64,000 nucleotides of DNA from Actinomycetota bacterium (GTDB lineage Bacteria; Actinomycetota; Acidimicrobiia; IMCC26256; PALSA-555), in NCBI GenBank assembly GCA_003140175.1, contig PLJD01000054.1, positions 1,294 to 65,293 on the forward strand. The letters run 5' to 3'. The translations under genes and the position numbers were made by a program. Shown here piece by piece: positions 1 through 12,346 of this stretch. The notes under the pieces are model-generated. The model saw only the letters and a program-made list of their open reading frames with translations, was not told the DNA's origin and made no database searches. The stretch's first letter is position 1, and every line of letters starts with the position of its first letter.

Positions 1-1570
1 CTACTCGGCGTACAAGATCGCGGTGGAGCACCGGGGGAGCCCGACCGTGATTCTGGCCAAGACGGTCAAAGGCTGGACGCTCGGCACCGGTCTCGAGGCC
101 CGCAACGCGACCCATCAGATCAAGAAGCTGGACGTCGCCGCCCTGAAGCAGTTCCGCGACCGGCTCAATCTGCCCATCGCCGACAGCGACCTCGAAGATG
201 GCGACCCGCCCTACTACCACCCCGGTACCGACTCGGCCGAGTACGAGTACCTCGCCGCGCGGCGCAAGGCCCTTCACGGGCCCCTTCCCGAGCGGGTGGT
301 GCGCAAACGGCCACTCGTGCTCCCCAAGCGGGACATGTACGCCGACCTCCTGGCCGGCACGGGCGAGAAGGTCCAGGCGTCGACGACGACCGCGTTCGCC
401 CGGCTGCTCCGGAGCCTGCTGCGTGATCCCCAGATCGGTCGTCGCGTCGTCCCGATCATCCCGGACGAGGCGCGCACGTTCGGCCTCGACGCGCTGTTTC
501 GCGAGGCCAAGATCTATGCCCCCTTCGGCCAGGCCTACGAGCCCGTCGACGCCGCGTTGCTCCTCTCCTATCAAGAGGCCCGCACCGGACGTCTCCTCGA
601 GGAGGGGATCACCGAGGCGGGCGCGATGGCGAGCTTCACCGCGGCCGGCACCGCCTACGCGACGTGGGGCGAACCCATGATCCCGTTCTTCATCTTCTAC
701 TCGATGTTCGGCTTCCAGCGGGTCGGGGACCTGATCTGGAGCTTCGGTGATCAACGGGGCCGCGGGTTCCTCCTCGGAGCCACCGCGGGACGCACGACCC
801 TCGCCGGCGAGGGCCTGCAACACTGCGATGGCCAGAGCCAGCTGTACGCGACCGCCTACCCGAACTGTCGGCCCTACGATCCCGCCTTCGCGTACGAGAT
901 GGCGGTCATCGTGCGGGACGGTATCGAGCGCATGTACGGACCCGACCCCGAGGATTGCTACTACTACCTCACCCTCTATAACGAGACCTACCCGATGCCG
1001 GCCATCCCTGACGGGGTCGAGGACGGAATCGTGCGCGGCCTGTATCGGTTCCGCGCCGCGACGGCTGACACCAAGCATCGAGCGCAGCTCCTCGCCAGCG
1101 GCACCGCCATGCTCGCGGCCTTGGAAGCCCAGCGCATGCTTGCCGACGAGTTCGACGTCGGCGTCGACGTGTGGAGCGCCACCAGCTACAAGCTGCTGCG
1201 CGACGACGCGTTGAGCGCCGAGCGCTGGAACCGTCTGCATCCCACCGACGCGCCGCGCGCGCCCTTCGTCACCGAGGCGCTCGCCGATGCTGATGGTCCG
1301 ATCGTCGCGGTCAGCGACTTCCTCAAGGCGGTCCCGGATCAAATCGCCCGATTTGTCCCCGCGCCGTTCGTGTCGCTCGGCACCGACGGCTACGGATTCT
1401 CCGACACCCGGATCGCGCTCCGTCGCCACTTCGAGATCGACGCGGCCCACGTCACCATCGCGGTGCTCGAGACCCTCGCCCGCCAAGGTGAGATCAAGGC
1501 CGAGCAGGTCGCCGAGGCGATCCGGCGCTACGACATCGACACAGAACGACCCGATCCCCGGACCGCCTGA
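1..1570 (+). CDS. aceE: Pyruvate dehydrogenase E1 component (homodimeric AceE type), C-terminal part; 5' end lies outside the window
   Basis: The frame is open from the window edge (..YSAYKIAVEHRGSPTVILAKTVKGWTLG..). The long C-terminal region has an AceE-like sequence pattern through to the stop at 1570. Confidence 0.85.
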   Translation, partial: YSAYKIAVEHRGSPTVILAKTVKGWTLGTGLEARNATHQIKKLDVAALKQFRDRLNLPIADSDLEDGDPPYYHPGTDSAEYEYLAARRKALHGPLPERVVRKRPLVLPKRDMYADLLAGTGEKVQASTTTAFARLLRSLLRDPQIGRRVVPIIPDEARTFGLDALFREAKIYAPFGQAYEPVDAALLLSYQEARTGRLLEEGITEAGAMASFTAAGTAYATWGEPMIPFFIFYSMFGFQRVGDLIWSFGDQRGRGFLLGATAGRTTLAGEGLQHCDGQSQLYATAYPNCRPYDPAFAYEMAVIVRDGIERMYGPDPEDCYYYLTLYNETYPMPAIPDGVEDGIVRGLYRFRAATADTKHRAQLLASGTAMLAALEAQRMLADEFDVGVDVWSATSYKLLRDDALSAERWNRLHPTDAPRAPFVTEALADADGPIVAVSDFLKAVPDQIARFVPAPFVSLGTDGYGFSDTRIALRRHFEIDAAHVTIAVLETLARQGEIKAEQVAEAIRRYDIDTERPDPRTA

Positions 1571-3571: not shown

Positions 3572-3643
3572 GGGCGCTTAGCTCAGCGGGAGAGCGCTGC
3601 CTTCACACGGCAGAGGCCGCAGGTTCGAAACCTGCAGCGCCCA
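3572..3643 (+). tRNA. tRNA-Val (anticodon CAC)
   Basis: Cloverleaf read by eye: acceptor GGGCGCT/AGCGCCC, D arm GCTC..GAGC, anticodon arm CTGCC-TTCACAC-GGCAG, variable AGGCC, T arm GCAGG-TTCGAAA-CCTGC, discriminator A. CCA is not encoded. Confidence 0.9.
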
Positions 3644-3720
3644 CACAAAGGCGCAGGTCAACAGCCTGCGCCTTCGCCGCGCCCGAACGCCATCCCTCGC
3701 GTCCCAGAAAGATCCCAGAA

Positions 3721-4926
3721 TTGTCTGGAGGGGACGTGCGAGGAAGCATTCGGACGAAGGTGCCCGGCAAGGTCTACGAGCTCCGCGTGGCGCTCGGGAA
3801 GGACCCCACCACCGGCCGCTACCGCCAGCAGTCGATCACCGTGCGAGGGTCCCGCTCCGACGCCCAACGGTCGCTGCGGCAGCTCCTCGACGAGGTCGAG
3901 TCGGGCCAGCACCAACACCCTGACGCGGGCTCCCGGACCTTCGCCGAACTGCTCGACGAGTGGCTGGCGCTCAAGGCCGCAGCCGACCGGTCGCCCACCA
4001 CGATCGCCCGCTACCGATCCTCTATCGAACGCCAGCTCAAGCCGGCGCTCGGCGACCGGCGCCTTGACCGCCTCGACACGAAGGCCTTCGACGACCTCTA
4101 CCGGACACTCGCGGCGAGGCTGAGTCCGGCCACCATCATGAAGACCCACCTGGTTGCTCGGGCCGCGCTCGACCGCGCCGTCCGCTGGGGCTGGATCATC
4201 CGGAACCCCTCGATCAACGCCGAACCACCGACGGTTCACCGCCCCATGATCCGACCGCCCACCCCCGAGGGTTTCGGGCGGCTCCTCGAGATCGCCGAGC
4301 GCGACGACCCGACTTTCGCCGTGATGCTCCGCGTGGCGGGGTCGACGGGTGCCCGCCGCGGAGAGCTCTGCGCCCTCCGTTGGAGTGATATCGACCTCGA
4401 TGGAGGGATGATCACGATCGAGCGAGCGGTCATCGTCGTCGACGGGGGAGTGCAAGAGCGCTCGACGAAGACCCACAACCGCCGTGCGGTCGCGCTCGAC
4501 GGAGGCACCGTGGACAGGCTTCGCAGGCATCTCACCGCCGAGCGGGCCAGCGCGGCGTCGTGCGGTGTGACGCTCGGCCCCGAGGCGTTCGTCTTCTCGC
4601 GCCGGCCCGGGGGATCGCTGCCACTTCGGCCCGACAATTGCACCACGACCTTCCAGAAGGTCGTCCGCCGAGCGGGCCTCTCGGGCTTCAGCTTGAAGGA
4701 CGCCACCCGACACCTCGCGGCGACCCAACTGATCGCCGGCGGGGTGGACGTGCGAACGGTCGCGGGGCGGCTCGGGCACGCTCGAGCCAGCACGACCCTC
4801 GACATCTATTCGCACTGGCTGCCAGCCCGGGATCGCGATGCGGCCGAGTTGCTCGGTCAGGTTCTCGATGGCTCAGCCGCCGGCCCGACCGGCGGCTCCA
4901 AGAGGAGGAAGGCCCGCAAGACGTGA
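3721..4926 (+). CDS. Tyrosine recombinase / phage-type integrase
   Basis: The gene begins about 80 nt after the tRNA. It has a SAM-like N-domain (ARYRSSIERQLKPALGDRRL..) and a catalytic domain with ARRGELCALRWSDIDL, ..HLAATQLIAGGVDVRTVAGRLGHARASTTLDIYSHW (R..HxxR..Y pattern). The exact start is uncertain. Confidence 0.9.
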   Translation: MSGGDVRGSIRTKVPGKVYELRVALGKDPTTGRYRQQSITVRGSRSDAQRSLRQLLDEVESGQHQHPDAGSRTFAELLDEWLALKAAADRSPTTIARYRSSIERQLKPALGDRRLDRLDTKAFDDLYRTLAARLSPATIMKTHLVARAALDRAVRWGWIIRNPSINAEPPTVHRPMIRPPTPEGFGRLLEIAERDDPTFAVMLRVAGSTGARRGELCALRWSDIDLDGGMITIERAVIVVDGGVQERSTKTHNRRAVALDGGTVDRLRRHLTAERASAASCGVTLGPEAFVFSRRPGGSLPLRPDNCTTTFQKVVRRAGLSGFSLKDATRHLAATQLIAGGVDVRTVAGRLGHARASTTLDIYSHWLPARDRDAAELLGQVLDGSAAGPTGGSKRRKARKT

Positions 4927-5120
4927 GCTGGGACCCACCGGCGGCGTGCGTAGCGCACCTCGGCAAGTTCTCCCCGATCGATCATCGCGGTGACGGTCTT
5001 GCGGTTGACGCGCAGAATGGCCGCGACCTCGTCGATCGAGAACGCAACGACTCCGCCGTCGAAGAGGGCGGCGTCGGCGAGGCTGGGTCGGTCGTGTGCG
5101 AGGAGTCGGAGTTCGGGCAT
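4857..5120 (-). CDS. Excisionase-family / MerR-like HTH DNA-binding protein
   Basis: FSIDEVAAILRVNRKTVTAMIDRGELAEVRYARRRWVPAHVL fits the excisionase-type HTH_17 pattern. The gene is convergent with the integrase and overlaps its 3' end by about 70 nt. Confidence 0.6.
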   Translation of the reverse strand: MPELRLLAHDRPSLADAALFDGGVVAFSIDEVAAILRVNRKTVTAMIDRGELAEVRYARRRWVPAHVLRAFLLLEPPVGPAAEPSRT

Positions 5121-5326
5121 CTATAGGACGCTCCTGCTGGGTTCGGGCTGGCACCGGGCGGGCCGATAGTGCGCCTGGGGCCGCCCAGGTCACCACCCGC
5201 CCGGAGCACCTGGGACCGCCCAGCTGACCACCCGGTTCGGGTCCCAATTGGTGCGTGGCGTCCTGGGAGCAAGCACGCCCCGGTCTGGGTGGTGCGATGC
5301 CCCCCGGTCGCGCACCCACCCGAAGC

Positions 5327-5353
5327 CAGGTCACGCCCGAAGGGCGTGACCTG
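5327..5353. other. Perfect 12-bp stem / 3-nt loop hairpin in the xis-to-sigma intergenic region
   Basis: CAGGTCACGCCC-gaa-GGGCGTGACCTG read directly. There is no T-tract and no upstream gene that it obviously terminates. Confidence 0.4.
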
Positions 5354-5667
5354 CAACCGTGTATACGCCTGGTGGTTGAGATCGTCGGACTTGGAGTGTC
5401 GGCTGGCAGGGTTACGGCAGTCGAAATCTTTGATCCGTCCCTAGGTGTGTTTTTCTCCGTGACTCGGCGTCATGGTCTGCGTTTCTGCACTCGGATCGCT
5501 GCGAACCCGCCTCGGGCTGCACTCCCGGGGACTTGGGCCCCAGATGGGGTGTCCATCTGCCGCGGGCTCGCCATCGACCGATGGCATCATCGAGGGATTC
5601 TCACGCGATCCAAGCCGGGACCCATTGGTCGACGCCAGGCGATGTTGTCACGCCAGTCGGCTGTGCC

Positions 5668-6642
5668 ATGACGAGGCACGATCCTCCGCCGCTAGCGCGC
5701 CTACGACGGGGCGAGCAACTGAGGGAGTACGCGGACTTCGTGAAGCGTGCGCTGCGAGCCGCGATGCGCAAGCGGCCGCACCCCGAGGGCCGGGCCTGGA
5801 CCGTGGGGGACGTCGAAGATCTCCTTCAGGACTTCTTCGAGAAGGGGAGCCATACCCACATCTTTGCCCGCTCCGCCGACGACGGTGCGCTCAGACTCCA
5901 GACGATTGTCGCTGCGCGCAACATGGTGATCGATGAACAACGAAAGTCTGACCGGGGGAAGCTGCATCGCCGACTGATCGAGATCCTGCACGTCGACTTC
6001 GACGAAGGCCCCGCCGGTTGGTGGCGAGAGAGAGGCACGTCGGAAGGCGACACTTGGGGAGGGCGGGACGCGGACCTCGTGACCGCGGCATGGGAAAGGA
6101 ACGTGCATCTTGTCTATTGGAGCCCCGAGGCGAAGCGAGATGGCCAACTCGCCGACCGCGGCCCGCTGGTGGAGGTGCTGACTGCCGTCTGCCGGCGGGC
6201 GGCCGGGGCGGTCGACATCGGAACCCTCGTGTACGTCGTCGCACGCAGGTTCAACCTGGGCCAATTGCCGCGTATCGAGTCACTCGACGTCCCCGCTCAC
6301 CGGGCAGAGGACGCCGAGGGACCTGCCCCGACCAGGGCCGACAACTCGGCGGACGCGGCAGCGGGCGACCCGGCCCTCGTGGCGCTCGCCGAGGAGATCT
6401 GGACAACCCAGCTCGACGAACGAGAGCGGATACTGGTCCCGTATTTGGCGTCTGGGGGTCGAACCGTCGAAGGGGAACTCGATATCGGGTTGCGGAAGTC
6501 GGCGGCCCACGACGCCTTGGAGCGCTTGAAGGCGAAGATGAGGCTGTTTCTAAGCGATCTCACCATCGACGAGCAGTCGGCTGTGCTCGTTTGCTTGCTC
6601 CAGCGCGTTCCTCGGGGCACGGTCCGACAAGGCGTGTCATGA
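5668..6642 (+). CDS. Divergent sigma-70/ECF-like protein with a long insertion between a region-2-like and a region-4-like segment
   Basis: ATG at 5668. The N-terminal segment ..VEDLLQDFFEK..LRLQTIVAARNMVIDEQRK.. resembles sigma region 2. The C-terminal segment LDERERILVPYLASGG..GLRKSAAHDALERLKAKM resembles the region 4 HTH. A ZAS-type anti-sigma gene follows. Confidence 0.4.
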   Translation: MTRHDPPPLARLRRGEQLREYADFVKRALRAAMRKRPHPEGRAWTVGDVEDLLQDFFEKGSHTHIFARSADDGALRLQTIVAARNMVIDEQRKSDRGKLHRRLIEILHVDFDEGPAGWWRERGTSEGDTWGGRDADLVTAAWERNVHLVYWSPEAKRDGQLADRGPLVEVLTAVCRRAAGAVDIGTLVYVVARRFNLGQLPRIESLDVPAHRAEDAEGPAPTRADNSADAAAGDPALVALAEEIWTTQLDERERILVPYLASGGRTVEGELDIGLRKSAAHDALERLKAKMRLFLSDLTIDEQSAVLVCLLQRVPRGTVRQGVS

Positions 6643-6700
6643 CAGGCGGACAGGTTCAGCCGGTGGTCCGTTCGCACGGGAAAGAGAGGAGGCGATTGCT

Positions 6701-7726
6701 ATGACGTCGTTTGAGCACCCAGACGAGCTCGCGCTATCCGACTGGGTCGACGGTCGGCTCGAGGAAGGCGAGTCGATGCGAATTGCCGACCATCTCACGG
6801 GCTGTGGCCTGTGTCAGCGCGAGATCGATCGCGAACGACACGATCTGCCTTTGACTGATGATCGATCGTTCGAGCCTGAGATCCCCATCGAATTCGCGAA
6901 CGCATTCGCGTCCGAGCCGCCCGCCCCGGAGCGGGGACAGGTCTGGCAGTTGCTCTGGGACAGCGCGGCTGAGCTCGTTGTGCTCGAAGAGACATCGCCG
7001 GACTCTGTGCGCGCGATCCCCCTTGAGCCCGATCTTGAATTAGGGGACGAGAGCGTTGTGGTGACGCCCAAGCTCGAGGTGTTGGGCTCGGCCATGGCGC
7101 TGTGGACGAGTCTGGTACGCGACGTCCCGCGCAGGGCGCTGAACGTCTGCTTCGGCTCGGTGCCAGTCCACGTTTTGGAAAGGGTCGACGACGTGCGGTC
7201 GGGCAAGAGAGCAGGACTGGGTGCACCGATCACGGCCGTGTTCGACGAGCGAGCGCAATTGCGGGTGTCCATCTCGCAGCGCCTCGACTTGCTCGCAGCC
7301 GCTGTATGGGGGCCAGGTGTGGACAATCCACCGTCCGACACCCTCGCCGATGTCGCTCGAAGCCGCGACCTTACGCCGTCGAGGATCGCTACGGTGCTCA
7401 AGATTCAACCTGGAGACGCGCGCGCCATCCTGAGCGGTTCCCGATCTATGGACGACGATGAGCGCGATGCCTTCGCGATCCTCGTCGGGATGTCGCCGAG
7501 CGATATCGACCTCTATCGCCCGAAGGTCGATCCGGAACTCGCTCTCGCGCTCGACAGGCCGAAATACCGTTCCCGACTGCGTGAGCGTGCAGAAGCCGAT
7601 GGGCGTTCCGAGGCGAACTACCGCTATTGGGTCGCTACTCACGGACTGGCGCGCGCGGCGCGCTCGGCGCGGACCACTAGCATCGACTGGGATCAGCTCA
7701 TCGAGGACTTCCTCAATGCCCGGTAG
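6701..7726 (+). CDS. Anti-sigma-like protein: N-terminal zf-HC2 (HxxxCxxC, ZAS) motif fused to a C-terminal Xre-like HTH
   Basis: H31-L-T-G-C35-G-L-C38 (nt 6791-6814) sits within LSDWVDGRLEEGESMRIADHLTGCGLCQRE. The C-terminal LADVARSRDLTPSRIATVLKIQPGDARAILSGSRSMDDDERDAFAILVGMSPSDI fits an Xre-type HTH. The 3' end overlaps the next gene by 11 nt. Confidence 0.55.
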   Translation: MTSFEHPDELALSDWVDGRLEEGESMRIADHLTGCGLCQREIDRERHDLPLTDDRSFEPEIPIEFANAFASEPPAPERGQVWQLLWDSAAELVVLEETSPDSVRAIPLEPDLELGDESVVVTPKLEVLGSAMALWTSLVRDVPRRALNVCFGSVPVHVLERVDDVRSGKRAGLGAPITAVFDERAQLRVSISQRLDLLAAAVWGPGVDNPPSDTLADVARSRDLTPSRIATVLKIQPGDARAILSGSRSMDDDERDAFAILVGMSPSDIDLYRPKVDPELALALDRPKYRSRLRERAEADGRSEANYRYWVATHGLARAARSARTTSIDWDQLIEDFLNAR

Positions 7727-8723
7727 CTACGACCAGGCGCGCCAACACGCTGAGCGCTTGGTCGCATCCATCTGCGATGACGAGCTCGAACTCTTGCGTG
7801 ACGAGCCGATCGAGGCGATCTCGGTGCTGTTTGAGGTGCCCGTCGACGTTCGCTCATCCGTCGGCAGCGGCTCCGACTGTTCAGTGGCTGGTTCGTATCG
7901 AGCAGAGCCGACGCCGCACATCACTATCGCCTCATTCCCCAGCGCGGGCCGCACCCTCTTCACCACGCTTCATGAGCTCGGCCATCACCTCTGTCGCCTC
8001 GACGGGGATATTCAGGACTGGTGCTTCGCGTGCGGCGATCCTCGCGCCGAAGAGCACGTCGCTGATGCGTTCGCTGCCGAGGCGCTGCTACCCGCCGAGC
8101 TCGTCAACGCGCGCATAGGTCCACGCGGCCCAACCGCTGCGGCCGTCGGCGACCTGTTCGGGGAGTCGAACGCGAGTCGTGAAGCGTGCTGCGTCCGTGC
8201 TGCACAGCGGCTGCTTGGCGCCGGCGCCGTGCTCGTCGCCCGCGGCCAGATCATCCAGTTCGCAGCGCAGCGCGCACTGCCCTTCTTTATCGCACGAGAG
8301 CTCGACCAGGGCCCTGACGGTCTCTTCGGTGAGCTGGCCCATGGTGGGACTGCGCGGACGGACGATCTGCGCATCCGCTTCCGCTCCGGGAACCTGAGTT
8401 CACCGCTGTTCGCCGATGCCACGGTGGTCGGGAACTACACCTTCGCCGTGCTGGTCGAGCACACCCTCCCGTGGGGTGGGCTCTCGATCCGGGCCGCCGA
8501 CGATGGCCCCATCGGCGGGGAGGTCGACTGCCAGTACTGCGACTTCGTCTTCAGCGACGTGTTCGCGCCGCCGTGCCGTCGGTGTGGGGATCGACCGTGC
8601 CCGAAATGTCGGCGCTGCGGCTGTGAGCCAAAGAGAGCGCCAGTCCGTCGCTGCACGTCCTGCTTCCTGGAGCTGCCGCGAGCGACTCCCGCCGACGTCC
8701 AGCTCTGCGAAACCTGCCGATAA
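7716..8723 (+). CDS. ImmA/IrrE-family (Peptidase_M78-like) metalloprotease with a C-terminal multi-zinc-ribbon tail
   Basis: ATG at 7716, in frame with track ORF 7458..8723. HELGH (HExxH) lies at nt 7971-7985. The tail carries six CxxC pairs: CQYC, CRRC, CPKC, CRRC, CTSC, CETC (about 8530-8720). Confidence 0.7.
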   Translation: MPGSYDQARQHAERLVASICDDELELLRDEPIEAISVLFEVPVDVRSSVGSGSDCSVAGSYRAEPTPHITIASFPSAGRTLFTTLHELGHHLCRLDGDIQDWCFACGDPRAEEHVADAFAAEALLPAELVNARIGPRGPTAAAVGDLFGESNASREACCVRAAQRLLGAGAVLVARGQIIQFAAQRALPFFIARELDQGPDGLFGELAHGGTARTDDLRIRFRSGNLSSPLFADATVVGNYTFAVLVEHTLPWGGLSIRAADDGPIGGEVDCQYCDFVFSDVFAPPCRRCGDRPCPKCRRCGCEPKRAPVRRCTSCFLELPRATPADVQLCETCR

Positions 8724-8800
8724 TCGACCGGACAGGATGGCGTGGTCTGCCGTTCAGGTGGGGTGTGAACGGATCCAGCCCCCCAGAAGGAGCCACCCCC

Positions 8801-9790
8801 ATGGACGTGCCCGACGCCTTCGACGTCCTCGACGAGAACCTCAAGCTCGACCCCGACGAGAGGGTCGCGGCACAGGACCGGCATGCCGAGATCACCGAGA
8901 CCCTCGTCTCTGCCGGCATCGCCAGCGGGTCCTTCCTGCAAGGGTCCTTCGCCCGCAAGACCATGTTGCCGCCCCTGCACGACATCGACAAGATCATCAT
9001 CCTGACCGAGGCCTACCGCGGTCAGCACCCCGACCGCGTCATGGGCGCGATCCAGGACGCGGTCGCCGCCGTGTGCTCGCCGGTGACCTTCGACCGCAGC
9101 AAGCACGCTGTGAAGATCGATATCGCTGACGACCCGTTCCTTTTCGACTGCGTTCCCGCGTTCGAGTCTGACGGCGAGGATGACGACGTACTGATCGCGA
9201 ACCGTGAGGCCCCGGCGGCGGTCGATCAGTGGACCCGCTCGAACCCCCGCGAGCTCGCCCGTCGGATCACGGAGCGTAACCAAGCAACGAACGGACGCTT
9301 CATCCACCAGGTGCGCATGGCCAAGCAGGCCGTCCGAGAGTTGCTCGGCGACAGTCTCCCAAGCCTCCACGTCGAATCGATCGCCTACATCGCGATCGAG
9401 ACCGTGCTCGAGCACCCCGACGCGATCGCGAAGTTCTTCGAAGTCGGCGCGGAACTCCTCGGCGGCGAGTACTTCGAACCCACCGGCGTCGACCAGATCT
9501 CGGATCGCCTCGACACCGCGATCGCGGACGAGGCAAAGCTCGCGTTCACCAACGCTGCTAAGCGCGCACACGAGGCGATCGATCTCGCGGCGGCCGGTGA
9601 TCACAACGAGGCCATCCGTGTGTGGGCGACGATGTTCGGGGACGTATTTCCACCGGCCCCCCCGCAGAGCGCGAACTCGGCGGTCGAGAAGTTGACACGC
9701 GGCGGCAGCGTCACCTCCGCGGCCGCCGTGAGCGCGACCCGCGCCGGGCGAACCCCGGCCCCGACGACACGGTCGTGGCGCTTGGCATGA
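8801..9790 (+). CDS. CD-NTase / SMODS-like nucleotidyltransferase (candidate cyclic-oligonucleotide synthase)
   Basis: ATG at 8801 lies 8 nt after AGAAGGAG. Pol-beta NTase signature: G48-S49 (LQGSFARKT), D61-x-D63 (HDIDKIIIL, nt 8981-8989) and a third Asp at D116 (FDCVPAF). A downstream W..SNP...NGRF...VRMAKQ helical region resembles CD-NTases. Confidence 0.6.
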   Translation: MDVPDAFDVLDENLKLDPDERVAAQDRHAEITETLVSAGIASGSFLQGSFARKTMLPPLHDIDKIIILTEAYRGQHPDRVMGAIQDAVAAVCSPVTFDRSKHAVKIDIADDPFLFDCVPAFESDGEDDDVLIANREAPAAVDQWTRSNPRELARRITERNQATNGRFIHQVRMAKQAVRELLGDSLPSLHVESIAYIAIETVLEHPDAIAKFFEVGAELLGGEYFEPTGVDQISDRLDTAIADEAKLAFTNAAKRAHEAIDLAAAGDHNEAIRVWATMFGDVFPPAPPQSANSAVEKLTRGGSVTSAAAVSATRAGRTPAPTTRSWRLA

Positions 9791-10314
9791 ACTCAGCCGC
9801 CCCCACCGAGAAGACCTGGACGTCGCCGCGTGCCGTCATTGACGGTCCGGAGGAGGTCGTTGCGTTCCTGATGAGGACCGACCTCGTGTTCGGAGTTGAC
9901 CGAATCGATGTCCCGCTCGCGGAGCCTTCATGCGTCGTTTTCTGGCTGACCATGACGCCGCTTCCGGCGGCCGCCGCCGAGGGCTACGCCGAGGAGCGAG
10001 TGAGCATTGCGATCTGGTCGCACGGCCGCATCATCGCGGTGCCGCTGGACTCGACGGGCCGCACCTGGCACCACCGGTACGGGGGACTGTTCAAAGAGCT
10101 CTGCCTCTTCGACCCCGCCGACCCTCGGCCGCTGCGCTGGAACTGGAACGATGGGCTCGCCGCCTACGTGATGATCGTCTACAAGCACCTCTTGTCCGAG
10201 GAGTACGCACGTCGCAACGGCGGACGCTGGCCGTGCGAGGACTCCCCCCACGGTTTTGGCCCGCACCCCATCCGCTCACCCGCGATGCAGACCGCAGTGC
10301 AGAGGGTCGCATGA
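9787..10314 (+). CDS. Small E2 (ubiquitin-conjugating)-like protein, candidate Cap2-short analogue
   Basis: The ATG overlaps the upstream TGA (ATGA at 9787-9790). RTWHHRYGGLFKELCLFDP..RWNWNDGLAAYVMIVYKHLL mimics the E2 HPN..G.iCl..W....i....i..ll layout, with the candidate catalytic residue C106 (nt 10102-10104). Pattern-based only. Confidence 0.4.
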   Translation: MNSAAPTEKTWTSPRAVIDGPEEVVAFLMRTDLVFGVDRIDVPLAEPSCVVFWLTMTPLPAAAAEGYAEERVSIAIWSHGRIIAVPLDSTGRTWHHRYGGLFKELCLFDPADPRPLRWNWNDGLAAYVMIVYKHLLSEEYARRNGGRWPCEDSPHGFGPHPIRSPAMQTAVQRVA

Positions 10315-10907
10315 CGGTGCTCGCCGCGTCCGATCCGAGCCTTTGGCCTGCAGTCATAGGGCTAATCGGAGTCGCCGTAGGCGGCGTGCTCACCTGGGTG
10401 CTCGGCCGACGTGGCGAGGCCGTCGATCGCCGCCGCGATGGTTACGCCGCCGCGATGACCACCTTGGTCGCGTACACGGAATACCCGTTCCGTATTCGGC
10501 GGCGCACCGGCGACGATCTCGATGCGCTCGCGGCCCTCGCCAGCACTGGACACGACCTCCAGCAGGAGCTCAGATGCCACGAAGCATGGATCGCCGCCGA
10601 GAGCAGCCGGGTCGCGGCAGTCTACGGCGAAGCGCGCCGCGGTCTGGCCACGACGCTCGGTGTCGCATGCAACCAGGCCTGGGCGAGCGAGCCGATCATG
10701 ACCGCGGCGGGCATGAACCTCGCTGGTTGGGGGCCCGACCCCGAGAGTGTCCGGGGGCACCTGGCGCGATTTGAGAGCGCTCTCGCATGTCGCTTCGGAT
10801 GGCGGCGAGCATTCAGCACCATTGGGATCTTGATCAAAGTGCCGCGCATACCCGCAATCGCGGAGATGTACACCCCGGAAGTACCCGGGCAGGCAACGGA
10901 GGAATGA
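10311..10907 (+). CDS. Single-pass membrane protein of unrecognised family (candidate effector)
   Basis: ATGA overlap at 10311-10314. The N-terminal hydrophobic helix LWPAVIGLIGVAVGGVLTWVLG is followed by about 160 aa of predicted helical soluble region with no motif I recognise. Confidence 0.5.
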   Translation: MTVLAASDPSLWPAVIGLIGVAVGGVLTWVLGRRGEAVDRRRDGYAAAMTTLVAYTEYPFRIRRRTGDDLDALAALASTGHDLQQELRCHEAWIAAESSRVAAVYGEARRGLATTLGVACNQAWASEPIMTAAGMNLAGWGPDPESVRGHLARFESALACRFGWRRAFSTIGILIKVPRIPAIAEMYTPEVPGQATEE

Positions 10908-10910
10908 GGC

Positions 10911-11111
10911 ATGGCGCAACGAGTCGTGATCGAGCGCAAGGATGGAACATGGGGTTGGCACCTCACAGCCGACAACGGGCAGATCATCGCGACGGACGGC
11001 AACCAGGGTTACGTGAACGAGGACGACGCCCGCAAGATGGCCGATCGCATCATCGGTGGGGAGTTTTCGGACGCCGACAAGCGGATCAGCCGCCAGCCGA
11101 AGAAGAGTTGA
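10911..11111 (+). CDS. DUF1508 (YegP-like) domain protein
   Basis: 66 aa. WGWHLTADNGQIIATDGNQGYVNEDDARKMADRI matches the DUF1508 repeat pattern. The gene starts 3 nt after the previous stop. Confidence 0.7.
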   Translation: MAQRVVIERKDGTWGWHLTADNGQIIATDGNQGYVNEDDARKMADRIIGGEFSDADKRISRQPKKS

Positions 11112-11353
11112 GCTCCCCTGCACTTCCCTTCCGTGACCGGCCCGTGATTCGGTCGTTGCAGAAGCGGCAGACGGAGGCAGCCTGATGGTGCCCACCCGGC
11201 GAGGGGCATCCTCGGAGATCCCCACAGGCAGTCGCGATACTCGAGCCTGCGAATTCGCTCAAGCACGTAGGTCAACGGGTCAGGAGGGTGACGGTCGCAG
11301 TCCAGCCGGGACCGCGGCCGAGCCGCGGGACAGCTCAACGCCGCGGACTCGGG

Positions 11354-12184
11354 TCAGCCATCGGATGGGCGGTTCGCCAGGACGATCTCGGTGTCACCGG
11401 GCCAGTCCCAAAACCGGCCGCTCGGAGATCTGGTGAGCAGGAGGTCTCGGACGTCGGCTTCGAAGTCCTCACGCCGGTCTGCGAAGAGGTGCGGCGCCGC
11501 GAACGACATCGAGAAGAAGTTGGCCAGCACGCCGTCGACGTCTTGGACGATGTCAGCTCGACCGGGGGCAAAGACCACCCGGTACCGATCGAAGCCGGCC
11601 CGAGTCAGGGTCTGGGCGTAGGGCTCGCCGGGTGGGGGCCGCAGGCCCCGCCCGGCGCGGCGTTGCGGCCCCAGATACTGGTCGATGAGGGCTTTGATCT
11701 CGTCGTGTGGGATTGGCGGATACCCAGGCCCCGGCGGCTGCGGTCGGCCCTCGAACGCGTGGTTGATGAGCGCGACCGCCCCGCCGGGCGCCAGCAGGCT
11801 GTGCACGGTCGCGAGGACCTGGTCGCGGTCGGTCCACCACAGTGACTGCCCGAACGTCGCGAGCCGAAAGTCTCCGAGGCTCAGGCTCGGGATGTCTTCG
11901 GCAGTGGCTCGAACCCAGTTGATGTTCGTGATGCCAGCCTGGTCGGCTCGGCGGACACCCTCGGCGAGCATGTCGGCGTCGGGGTCGAGCCCCACCGCCT
12001 CCTCGAAACTGGCTGCCAGCTCCACGGTGAGGATGCCCGGGCCGCATCCGACATCGAGGAGTCGACCCGAGCCGTCGAGGCCGACCTCTCGGGTCAGCGT
12101 GGACACGAGCTCGCGGGAGTACGCCGGCCGGCCGGCGGCGTAGTACGCGGCGCTGCCCTCATAGATCGTCGGGTCGTACGGCAT
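11354..12184 (-). CDS. Class I SAM-dependent methyltransferase
   Basis: ATG at 12184 (MPYDPTIYEGSAAYYAAGRPAY). The SAM-binding motif is LLDVGCGPGILT. Confidence 0.8.
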   Translation of the reverse strand: MPYDPTIYEGSAAYYAAGRPAYSRELVSTLTREVGLDGSGRLLDVGCGPGILTVELAASFEEAVGLDPDADMLAEGVRRADQAGITNINWVRATAEDIPSLSLGDFRLATFGQSLWWTDRDQVLATVHSLLAPGGAVALINHAFEGRPQPPGPGYPPIPHDEIKALIDQYLGPQRRAGRGLRPPPGEPYAQTLTRAGFDRYRVVFAPGRADIVQDVDGVLANFFSMSFAAPHLFADRREDFEADVRDLLLTRSPSGRFWDWPGDTEIVLANRPSDG

Positions 12185-12346
12185 TGCCAACCGATCCTGC
12201 CCGCGATTCCCACAACTTGCCGGTGCGGTGGGATCCTTCCATTTCGACGAAGCCGACGATATGTTCGCCACGACAACCAAATGCCCCCGGCGCCGGCGGT
12301 AACCGACCCGGGGGCGTGGCCAGCACCTACTTAGGAGGTACTAGCA

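Follow-up and report, generated by a model that had tools for sequence, protein, structure and literature searches.

E2-only forms of CBASS, the anti-phage signalling system based on cyclic oligonucleotides, have been described in 616 genomes; in these systems, the E2 covalently regulates the CD-NTase via its C-terminal tail, and the CD-NTases belong predominantly to clade G (PMC12948482). Membrane-disrupting transmembrane (TM) proteins represent the commonest class of CBASS effectors (PMC10419184), with effectors made of TM segments alone being most abundant (PMC12480259, PMC10419184). When they bind a nucleotide, TM effectors such as Cap15 form oligomers that disrupt the inner membrane, Cap15 being activated by cyclic dinucleotides (PMC10419184). 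The effector class '1TM' is used in 10.1101/2022.04.27.489752 and PMC12480259, and papers citing Millman et al. (2020) credit the class to that work. Here, we analysed a 64,000-nucleotide stretch of the Actinomycetota contig PLJD01000054.1 (hereafter, the window), focusing on an operon at 5668-11111 of the forward strand whose last two genes encode a 198-aa protein with one TM helix and a 66-aa DUF1508 protein. A previous interpretation drawn from the DNA letters (the sequence-only reading) had regarded the two proteins as a candidate effector pair of unrecognised type, with DUF1508 as a possible sensor or adaptor. According to our analysis, it is likely that the operon encodes an E2-type CBASS, that the 198-aa protein acts as its 1TM effector, and that the DUF1508 protein stands outside the core mechanism.

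The seven genes of the operon run in one direction and are tightly packed, in the order unclassified first gene (perhaps sigma-like), zf-HC2, CapP peptidase, CD-NTase, stand-alone E2, 1TM and DUF1508 (Table 1). Consecutive genes are matched by PADLOC as capP, Cyclase, E2 and Effector-1TM, bearing out the earlier supposition that a signalling module precedes the terminal pair and identifying this module as CBASS. The two terminal open reading frames (ORFs), delineated by the sequence-only reading as the end of the operon, are real genes: both have many conserved homologues, and therefore neither is a chance ORF. The ATG of the 198-aa ORF overlaps the stop codon of the upstream E2 gene (ATGA, 10311-10314), and its GC content at codon positions 1, 2 and 3 (0.69, 0.57 and 0.76, in DNA of ~67% GC) is coding-like. 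The 66-aa ORF begins 3 nt past the 198-aa stop codon, has a GGAGGA Shine-Dalgarno-like motif ~8 nt upstream and shows coding-like values as well (0.60, 0.43 and 0.81).

The effector candidate belongs to a type that had already been catalogued. The 198-aa protein and all 60 of its aligned relatives match the 'Effector 1TM' hidden Markov models (HMMs) of PADLOC, PDLC00666 and PDLC00665 (best value 1.6e-56), and the description as an unrecognised type has to be abandoned. A word-index search returned 90 homologues, those with an organism name being actinomycetes, and an exhaustive profile search assigned 896 clusters (50% identity) to the family, 648 of them at E<=1e-10. The 1TM family has no Pfam entry, and scans of Pfam and NCBIfam gave no match. 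Consistent with the single N-terminal hydrophobic helix that had been noticed before, Kyte-Doolittle analysis shows a single hydrophobic segment (residues ~11-32, maximum 2.18), with RR after it. The N-terminal stretch is shared by 60/60 aligned members, and a second hydrophobic window (112-130) appears only in member P0032. Because the mean net charge in the family changes from -0.8 before the stretch to +1.4 after it, a single-pass inner-membrane topology with a short N-terminus outside and the C-terminus inside is suggested. The protein resembles the CBASS 1TM family in its direct HMM match, its single N-terminal TM helix and the position of its gene right after CD-NTase and E2. We assign it to this family, from which nothing separates it.

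The gene neighbourhood links the effector family to nucleotide signalling. A genome scan covering one genome per species, with a profile made from a 12-sequence subset of the alignment, yielded 53 loci in Actinomycetota. In 46 of them, a CD-NTase and an E2 gene are located directly upstream of the 1TM homologue, in that order (tblastn), and besides these two the 1TM gene is the only conserved gene. The genes 3' of the effector are heterogeneous among the 53 loci and often lie on the other strand. Seven loci are exceptions, among them one with a GGDEF-domain protein directly upstream (L035, Pfam 1.2e-11) and one with a different CD-NTase (L046). The homologues are therefore not found mostly outside nucleotidyltransferase neighbourhoods, the finding that the sequence-only reading had named as a refutation, and the 198-aa gene does occupy the effector position it had been given. 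Since the homologues nearly always reside beside a nucleotide cyclase, we interpret the 198-aa protein as a genuine cyclase-linked membrane effector. In L035 (6921-8552), from Catenuloplanes japonicus, the GGDEF protein precedes the 1TM-family gene and neither CD-NTase nor E2 is present; the effector family seems to be reused here with a GGDEF-type cyclase. In L046, the 1TM gene is divergent from the other CD-NTase (opposite strand, PADLOC 1.2e-12) and from a 507-aa unknown protein.

The two genes preceding the effector place the operon close to the E2-CBASS, or type II short, systems exemplified by SmCdnG-SmE2 of Serratia marcescens. As in these systems, an E2 gene follows the CD-NTase gene and neither an E1 nor a JAB gene accompanies it: no operon gene matched JAB or E1 in Pfam or PADLOC, and the E2, at 175 aa, is not long enough to be an E1-E2 fusion. 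The start of the E2 gene overlaps the CD-NTase stop (ATGA). For the E2 protein, which was recognised by the CBASS models of PADLOC, no PDB sequence match and no Pfam or NCBIfam match was obtained. A further likeness to E2-CBASS is the conserved Gly-containing C-terminal tail of the CD-NTase (window 9690-9790), which carries KLTRGG-SVTS ~27 aa before the C-terminus and ends in RSWRLA. The motif (A/G)G-S(I/V)TS(T/A)G and the terminal RSWR are conserved in most related CD-NTase loci (L005-L060), and the KLTRGG of the window enzyme resembles the LRGG of ubiquitin. Such a tail is consistent with E2-mediated cleavage or conjugation at Gly. The window operon differs from E2-CBASS as described in its actinobacterial host, in its 1TM effector and apparently in its CD-NTase, which has 6P82, 6P8U and 6P8J (1e-14) as nearest PDB relatives. 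Within our overall interpretation, the operon is probably an E2-type anti-phage system, classifiable, ordinary and of a known kind. Interrupted copies of these genes were seen in two related contigs: in L004, which is identical to the window, the CD-NTase is broken into two ORFs (6499-7480; 106 and 239 aa), and in L058, from a sister lineage, the E2 is split by a frameshift (6476-6998). The breaks reflect either errors of assembly or inactivation of the copies.

An AlphaFold2 model of the 198-aa protein, computed with a 60-sequence alignment, was confident (pLDDT 91.6, pTM 0.80) and all-helical, with helices at residues 9-63 (the TM segment continuing into the cytoplasm), 70-97, 99-125, 144-159 and 163-170. 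The protein is thus predicted to consist of one TM helix and a cytoplasmic helical bundle, the latter comprising ~165 aa. Residues that are invariant or nearly so comprise R41, R42, Y45, E57, R61, R63-R65, G80, H81, Q84, W93, E97, W124, M135, G141 and R161-F-G-W-R-R166, and the conserved Arg-rich motifs of the bundle read RRRDGYA, EYPxRIRRR and RFGWRR. As a small membrane-anchored effector encoded beside a cyclase, the protein resembles Cap15 as well as Cap13, Cap14 and Cap16, and a similar logic would be expected by analogy. It differs from Cap15, which has two TM segments and a β-barrel, in having one TM helix, compared to two to four in TM effectors, and from all four proteins in that its cytoplasmic part is modelled as all-helical, with no β-barrel, SAVED or NUDIX domain. 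Following the example of these effectors, the cytoplasmic Arg-rich bundle would bind the cyclic oligonucleotide produced by the adjacent CD-NTase, and the ligand-bound 1TM effector would oligomerise. The oligomer would then disrupt or depolarise the inner membrane and so abort the infection.

The last gene of the operon encodes a single-domain protein that exceeds the Pfam threshold of DUF1508, as the sequence-only reading had it, and scores 29.2 bits against the NCBIfam model HVO_2922, under the cut-off of 90. Its AlphaFold2 model (pLDDT 91.9) shows a three-stranded sheet and a helix, and the top Foldseek matches were HVO_2922 (6Q2Z, probability 1.00, rmsd 1.1 Å), NMB1088 (3BID) and YegP (2K8E), along with 2K7I and 2K49. 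In its Pfam match and in its predicted fold, which superposes on 6Q2Z, 3BID and 2K8E, the protein is like YegP, HVO_2922 and NMB1088 (DUF1508, UPF0339). Unlike YegP-type proteins, the actinobacterial and phage subfamily to which it belongs is extended by a conserved MADRIIGGEF and has an additional strand at the C-terminus as well as a basic tail, and the window copy is set apart by closing a CBASS operon. The single-domain form of DUF1508 has been reported to homodimerise, and the window protein probably is a homodimer.

To trace DUF1508 in the 53 genome loci, we searched ±8 kb around each with tblastn and with an HMM of 30 subfamily members applied to all six-frame ORFs. The gene was absent from every locus by both methods (best E=0.19). 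Among the closest operons, a DUF1508 gene behind that of the effector is confined to the window lineage and the sister lineage L058/L060, where the effector is 71% identical and DUF1508 overlaps the effector gene by 16 nt. Operons with effectors of 64% and 54% identity are devoid of DUF1508, a pattern consistent with the gene having joined the operon by a single gain in one shallow sub-clade. Relatives of the window protein with 60-82% identity occur in prophages and defence islands. They are found with HsdR of a type I restriction system and an ECF sigma factor as neighbours (82%, L069), adjoining the terminase of a Cellulomonas prophage (78%, L062), beside a KAP NTPase (74%, L065 5001-7832) and in an operon that diverges from an HTH+M78 pair with DUF2971 (70%, L063 2360-6440). 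Other relatives lie next to DUF3644 and EC042_2821 (L066 612-2345) or SLFN_AlbA_2 and EC042_2821 (L068 5001-6238). Such repeated defence-type neighbours recall the yegP genes described as cargo of capK+capS regulators.

Scans for the DUF1508 subfamily collected 65 loci from metagenomes and 26 viral ones from IMG/VR. In 86 distinct loci, not a single 1TM, E2 or CapP homologue was found, and only one (L067) has a CD-NTase nearby. In a census of 150 flanking proteins, phage genes dominate: the commonest neighbours are HNH endonucleases (11 members of phrog_338), small and large terminase subunits and portal proteins, accompanied by ParB, DNA methyltransferases and SSB. Because DUF1508 is missing from 53/53 loci and its close relatives reside in non-CBASS places, the idea of an effector pair, with DUF1508 as sensor or adaptor, is unsupported. 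These data rather describe DUF1508 as a lineage-specific, mostly phage-borne add-on and not as a conserved partner of the 1TM effector. The gene would have come from a pool residing mainly in prophages and defence islands and would have been attached behind the effector gene, at the operon's 3' end, in one shallow sub-clade, where it would be co-expressed. Most likely, the small protein would act alone, induced by stress or infection, and might bind nucleic acids. Locus L067 (5001-9583) contains a 71%-identical DUF1508 located 1.7 kb upstream of an unrelated, co-directional CBASS composed of an S_4TM effector and two SMODS genes. Two unknown genes lie in between, and this is the sole other proximity of DUF1508 and CBASS in the 86 loci.

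Several observations weigh against the interpretation of the operon as an E2-type CBASS with a 1TM effector and a DUF1508 passenger, some concerning the effector and its cyclase and others the DUF1508 gene. Ligand binding and membrane damage by the 1TM effector have their basis in analogy, and no experimental study of any 1TM effector was found in the literature. The Foldseek search proposed by the sequence-only reading for the soluble domain was run with the effector and returned no credible relative in PDB (best E=0.77) or BFVD (best E=0.61). Likewise, a profile search of PDB sequences with the 198-aa protein gave nothing credible (best E=0.36). Neither the 198-aa nor the 66-aa protein matched SAVED, STING, CARF or cyclic-nucleotide-binding (cNMP-binding) families in Pfam or NCBIfam (E<=0.1), in agreement with the earlier inspection by eye, and the 198-aa protein appears to have no detectable nucleotide-sensor domain. 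As to the CD-NTase, its score against NCBIfam CBASS_cyclase_b is 131 bits, under the equivalog cut-off of 200. The clade-G-type structures 7LJM and 7LJL were reached at only ~1e-3, suggesting that its nearest solved relatives lie outside clade G, the clade typical of E2-CBASS.

On the side of DUF1508, two diverged operon lineages with different genomic flanks retain the gene in one and the same place, and it is translationally coupled in both, with the 3-nt gap in the window and the overlap in L058/L060. The protein is 82% identical between the window and the sister operon, compared to 54-71% for the other six proteins. Joined by the second case of proximity in L067, these features would fit a true accessory of a CBASS sub-clade: either a buffer or antitoxin, which would set the threshold of activation by holding back the 1TM effector or sequestering the signal, or an adaptor or sensor linking a phage cue, for instance single-stranded DNA (ssDNA), to the system. 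Published immune contexts point in the same direction. A yegP homologue follows the regulator pair capK+capS in 57 cases (PMC13373217), tandem DUF1508 domains, predicted to be Whirly/PC4-like, make up the putative sensor at the N-terminus of Menshen NsnA (PMC12065111), and Bub operons contain fusions of DUF1508 with ubiquitin-like proteins (10.1101/2024.11.21.623966). However, the high conservation belongs to the whole DUF1508 subfamily and not only to the CBASS-linked copies, near-identical proteins exist where CBASS, CD-NTase and 1TM are all lacking, and the association traces to a single event, the gene being absent from the 53 other loci and from the relatives with 64% and 54% identity. 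We therefore regard an accessory role as unlikely. It is similarly doubtful, and slightly more so, that the DUF1508 protein takes a functional part in the window CBASS, in the sense of a small dimeric, possibly ssDNA/RNA- or nucleotide-binding module that tunes or triggers the system (for instance, by restraining 1TM or buffering the signal), and that free-standing DUF1508 proteins are generally portable sensor or regulator modules. If true, such modules would plug into CBASS, KAP NTPases, EC042_2821 nucleases, Menshen, Bub and CapK/CapS cargo.

The phage-rich neighbourhoods of its relatives raise the alternative that DUF1508 is a captured phage gene, with a native role in phage biology (at the packaging junction of HNH, terminase and portal genes, say, or in counter-defence), which persists in the operon as neutral cargo or is nearing loss. 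The 26 IMG/VR loci, the prevalence of HNH endonucleases, terminase subunits and portal proteins as neighbours and the 78%-identical prophage copy in L062 would accord with such an origin. However, the window gene is intact, has a GC content of 0.81 at third codon positions and is conserved at 82% between the operon lineages, which argues against decay, and no known anti-CBASS family was matched; we consider this alternative quite improbable. That the 198-aa protein is a mere membrane anchor or regulator, with the true killing effector encoded elsewhere, is hardly credible: the protein has no enzymatic, known pore-forming or recognised nucleotide-sensor domain, but its gene is the sole one conserved besides CD-NTase and E2 in the 46 loci, with none conserved after it, the 1TM gene is paired alone with a GGDEF cyclase in L035, and TM-only effectors constitute the most abundant CBASS class.

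Upstream of the CD-NTase, three genes form a putative regulatory module. Homologues of zf-HC2 and CapP are located upstream of the core genes in 16 of the 53 genome loci, and homologues of the first gene precede this pair in 12 of the 16 and also in L058-L060. The arrangement is like that of the DNA-damage-responsive CBASS regulators CapH-CapP in that a CapP-type M78 peptidase (HExxH) is encoded upstream of the core genes. It is unlike them in its partner, a zf-HC2 anti-sigma-type protein in place of a recognisable small helix-turn-helix (HTH) CapH, and in its orientation, the CapH-CapP genes being divergent and those of the window all co-directional, with a first gene of no recognisable family. 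No PADLOC capH and no Pfam HTH match was obtained for the zf-HC2 protein; its C-terminal part may contain an XRE-like stretch, as judged by eye only. The first gene had no Pfam, PADLOC or NCBIfam match. A C-terminal stretch of its product is sigma-r4/LuxR-like. An identification as sigma factor found no support in Pfam or PDB, the only hit of a profile search against PDB being a NarL-type HTH at E=0.33; the protein may be a regulator of divergent sigma-like or HTH type. In 24 CBASS systems, capH and capP have been found alongside a sigma factor of the sigma70 family (Lau et al.). The three genes of the window may form a sigma/anti-sigma/protease switch, and a CapP-type peptidase module would control the expression of the operon.

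The operon is likely carried on an integrated island. A tyrosine integrase gene lies directly downstream of a tRNA-Val gene and is followed by a HTH_17 gene, both upstream of the operon, and the island reading follows from this arrangement, with tRNA-Val as the likely integration site. No attR repeat of the tRNA-Val 3' end was found within the window, and a shared 13-mer (3649/55149) was discarded as attR candidate, as it does not extend and represents a chance match. A scan of 4900-11500 for consensus promoters and terminators found none, such consensus scans being uninformative for a high-GC actinobacterium. Downstream of the operon and convergent with it, a methyltransferase gene dependent on S-adenosylmethionine (11354-12280, reverse strand) occupies the same place in the identical contigs L001-L004. 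It matches PADLOC 'mad2' (2.8e-16) over the generic methyltransferase domain only. Because L058 and L060 carry a different gene in its place, encoding a phosphoesterase or a TrwC relaxase, the methyltransferase is probably flanking host DNA. In Table 1, coordinates of the identical contig L001 are converted to those of the window by adding 2310.

Table 1. Features of the window in and upstream of the operon (window coordinates).
Feature	Position	Strand	Evidence
tRNA-Val (CAC)	3572..3644	+	ARAGORN
Tyrosine integrase	3760..4926	+	Phage_integrase (Pfam) on the counterpart gene, L001 1450-2616
HTH_17 excisionase-like small gene	4857..5120	-	87-aa ORF; PF12728 on the called 87-aa gene in L004 and L002
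First operon gene, 324 aa	5668..6642 (ORF extends to 5533; 324-369 aa)	+	No family match
zf-HC2 (anti-sigma-type zinc finger) protein, 341 aa	6701..7726	+	Pfam zf-HC2 5.4e-5, 23.6 bits (cut-off 22.2)
CapP-like M78 metallopeptidase, 335 aa	7716..8723	+	PADLOC capP 5.8e-15; Pfam Peptidase_M78 8.2e-7; HELGHH motif
CD-NTase	8765..9790 (gene callers' start: 8801)	+	PADLOC Cyclase 4.1e-44; Pfam SMODS 1.5e-13
Stand-alone E2-like protein, 175 aa	9787..10314	+	PADLOC CBASS E2 models 2.5e-11, 6.5e-11, 8.7e-11
Putative CBASS '1TM' effector, 198 aa	10311..10907	+	PADLOC Effector 1TM PDLC00666 2.6e-16, PDLC00665 1.9e-15
DUF1508/YegP-family protein, 66 aa, single domain	10911..11111	+	Pfam PF07411 29.9 bits (cut-off 22), E=5.2e-7

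The result for DUF1508 averts a wrong annotation as 'effector partner' and adds a further case of DUF1508/YegP genes in damage-regulated immune operons, a pattern that has been noted in the literature and is unexplained. The 1TM family itself is abundant, tied to cyclases and mechanistically blank, which makes it a worthwhile target for experiments, and the confident model together with a few invariant Arg, Trp and Glu residues makes it an accessible one. Work on 1TM proteins could reveal the way in which so small a membrane protein, crossing the bilayer once, detects a cyclic nucleotide and brings about cell death.

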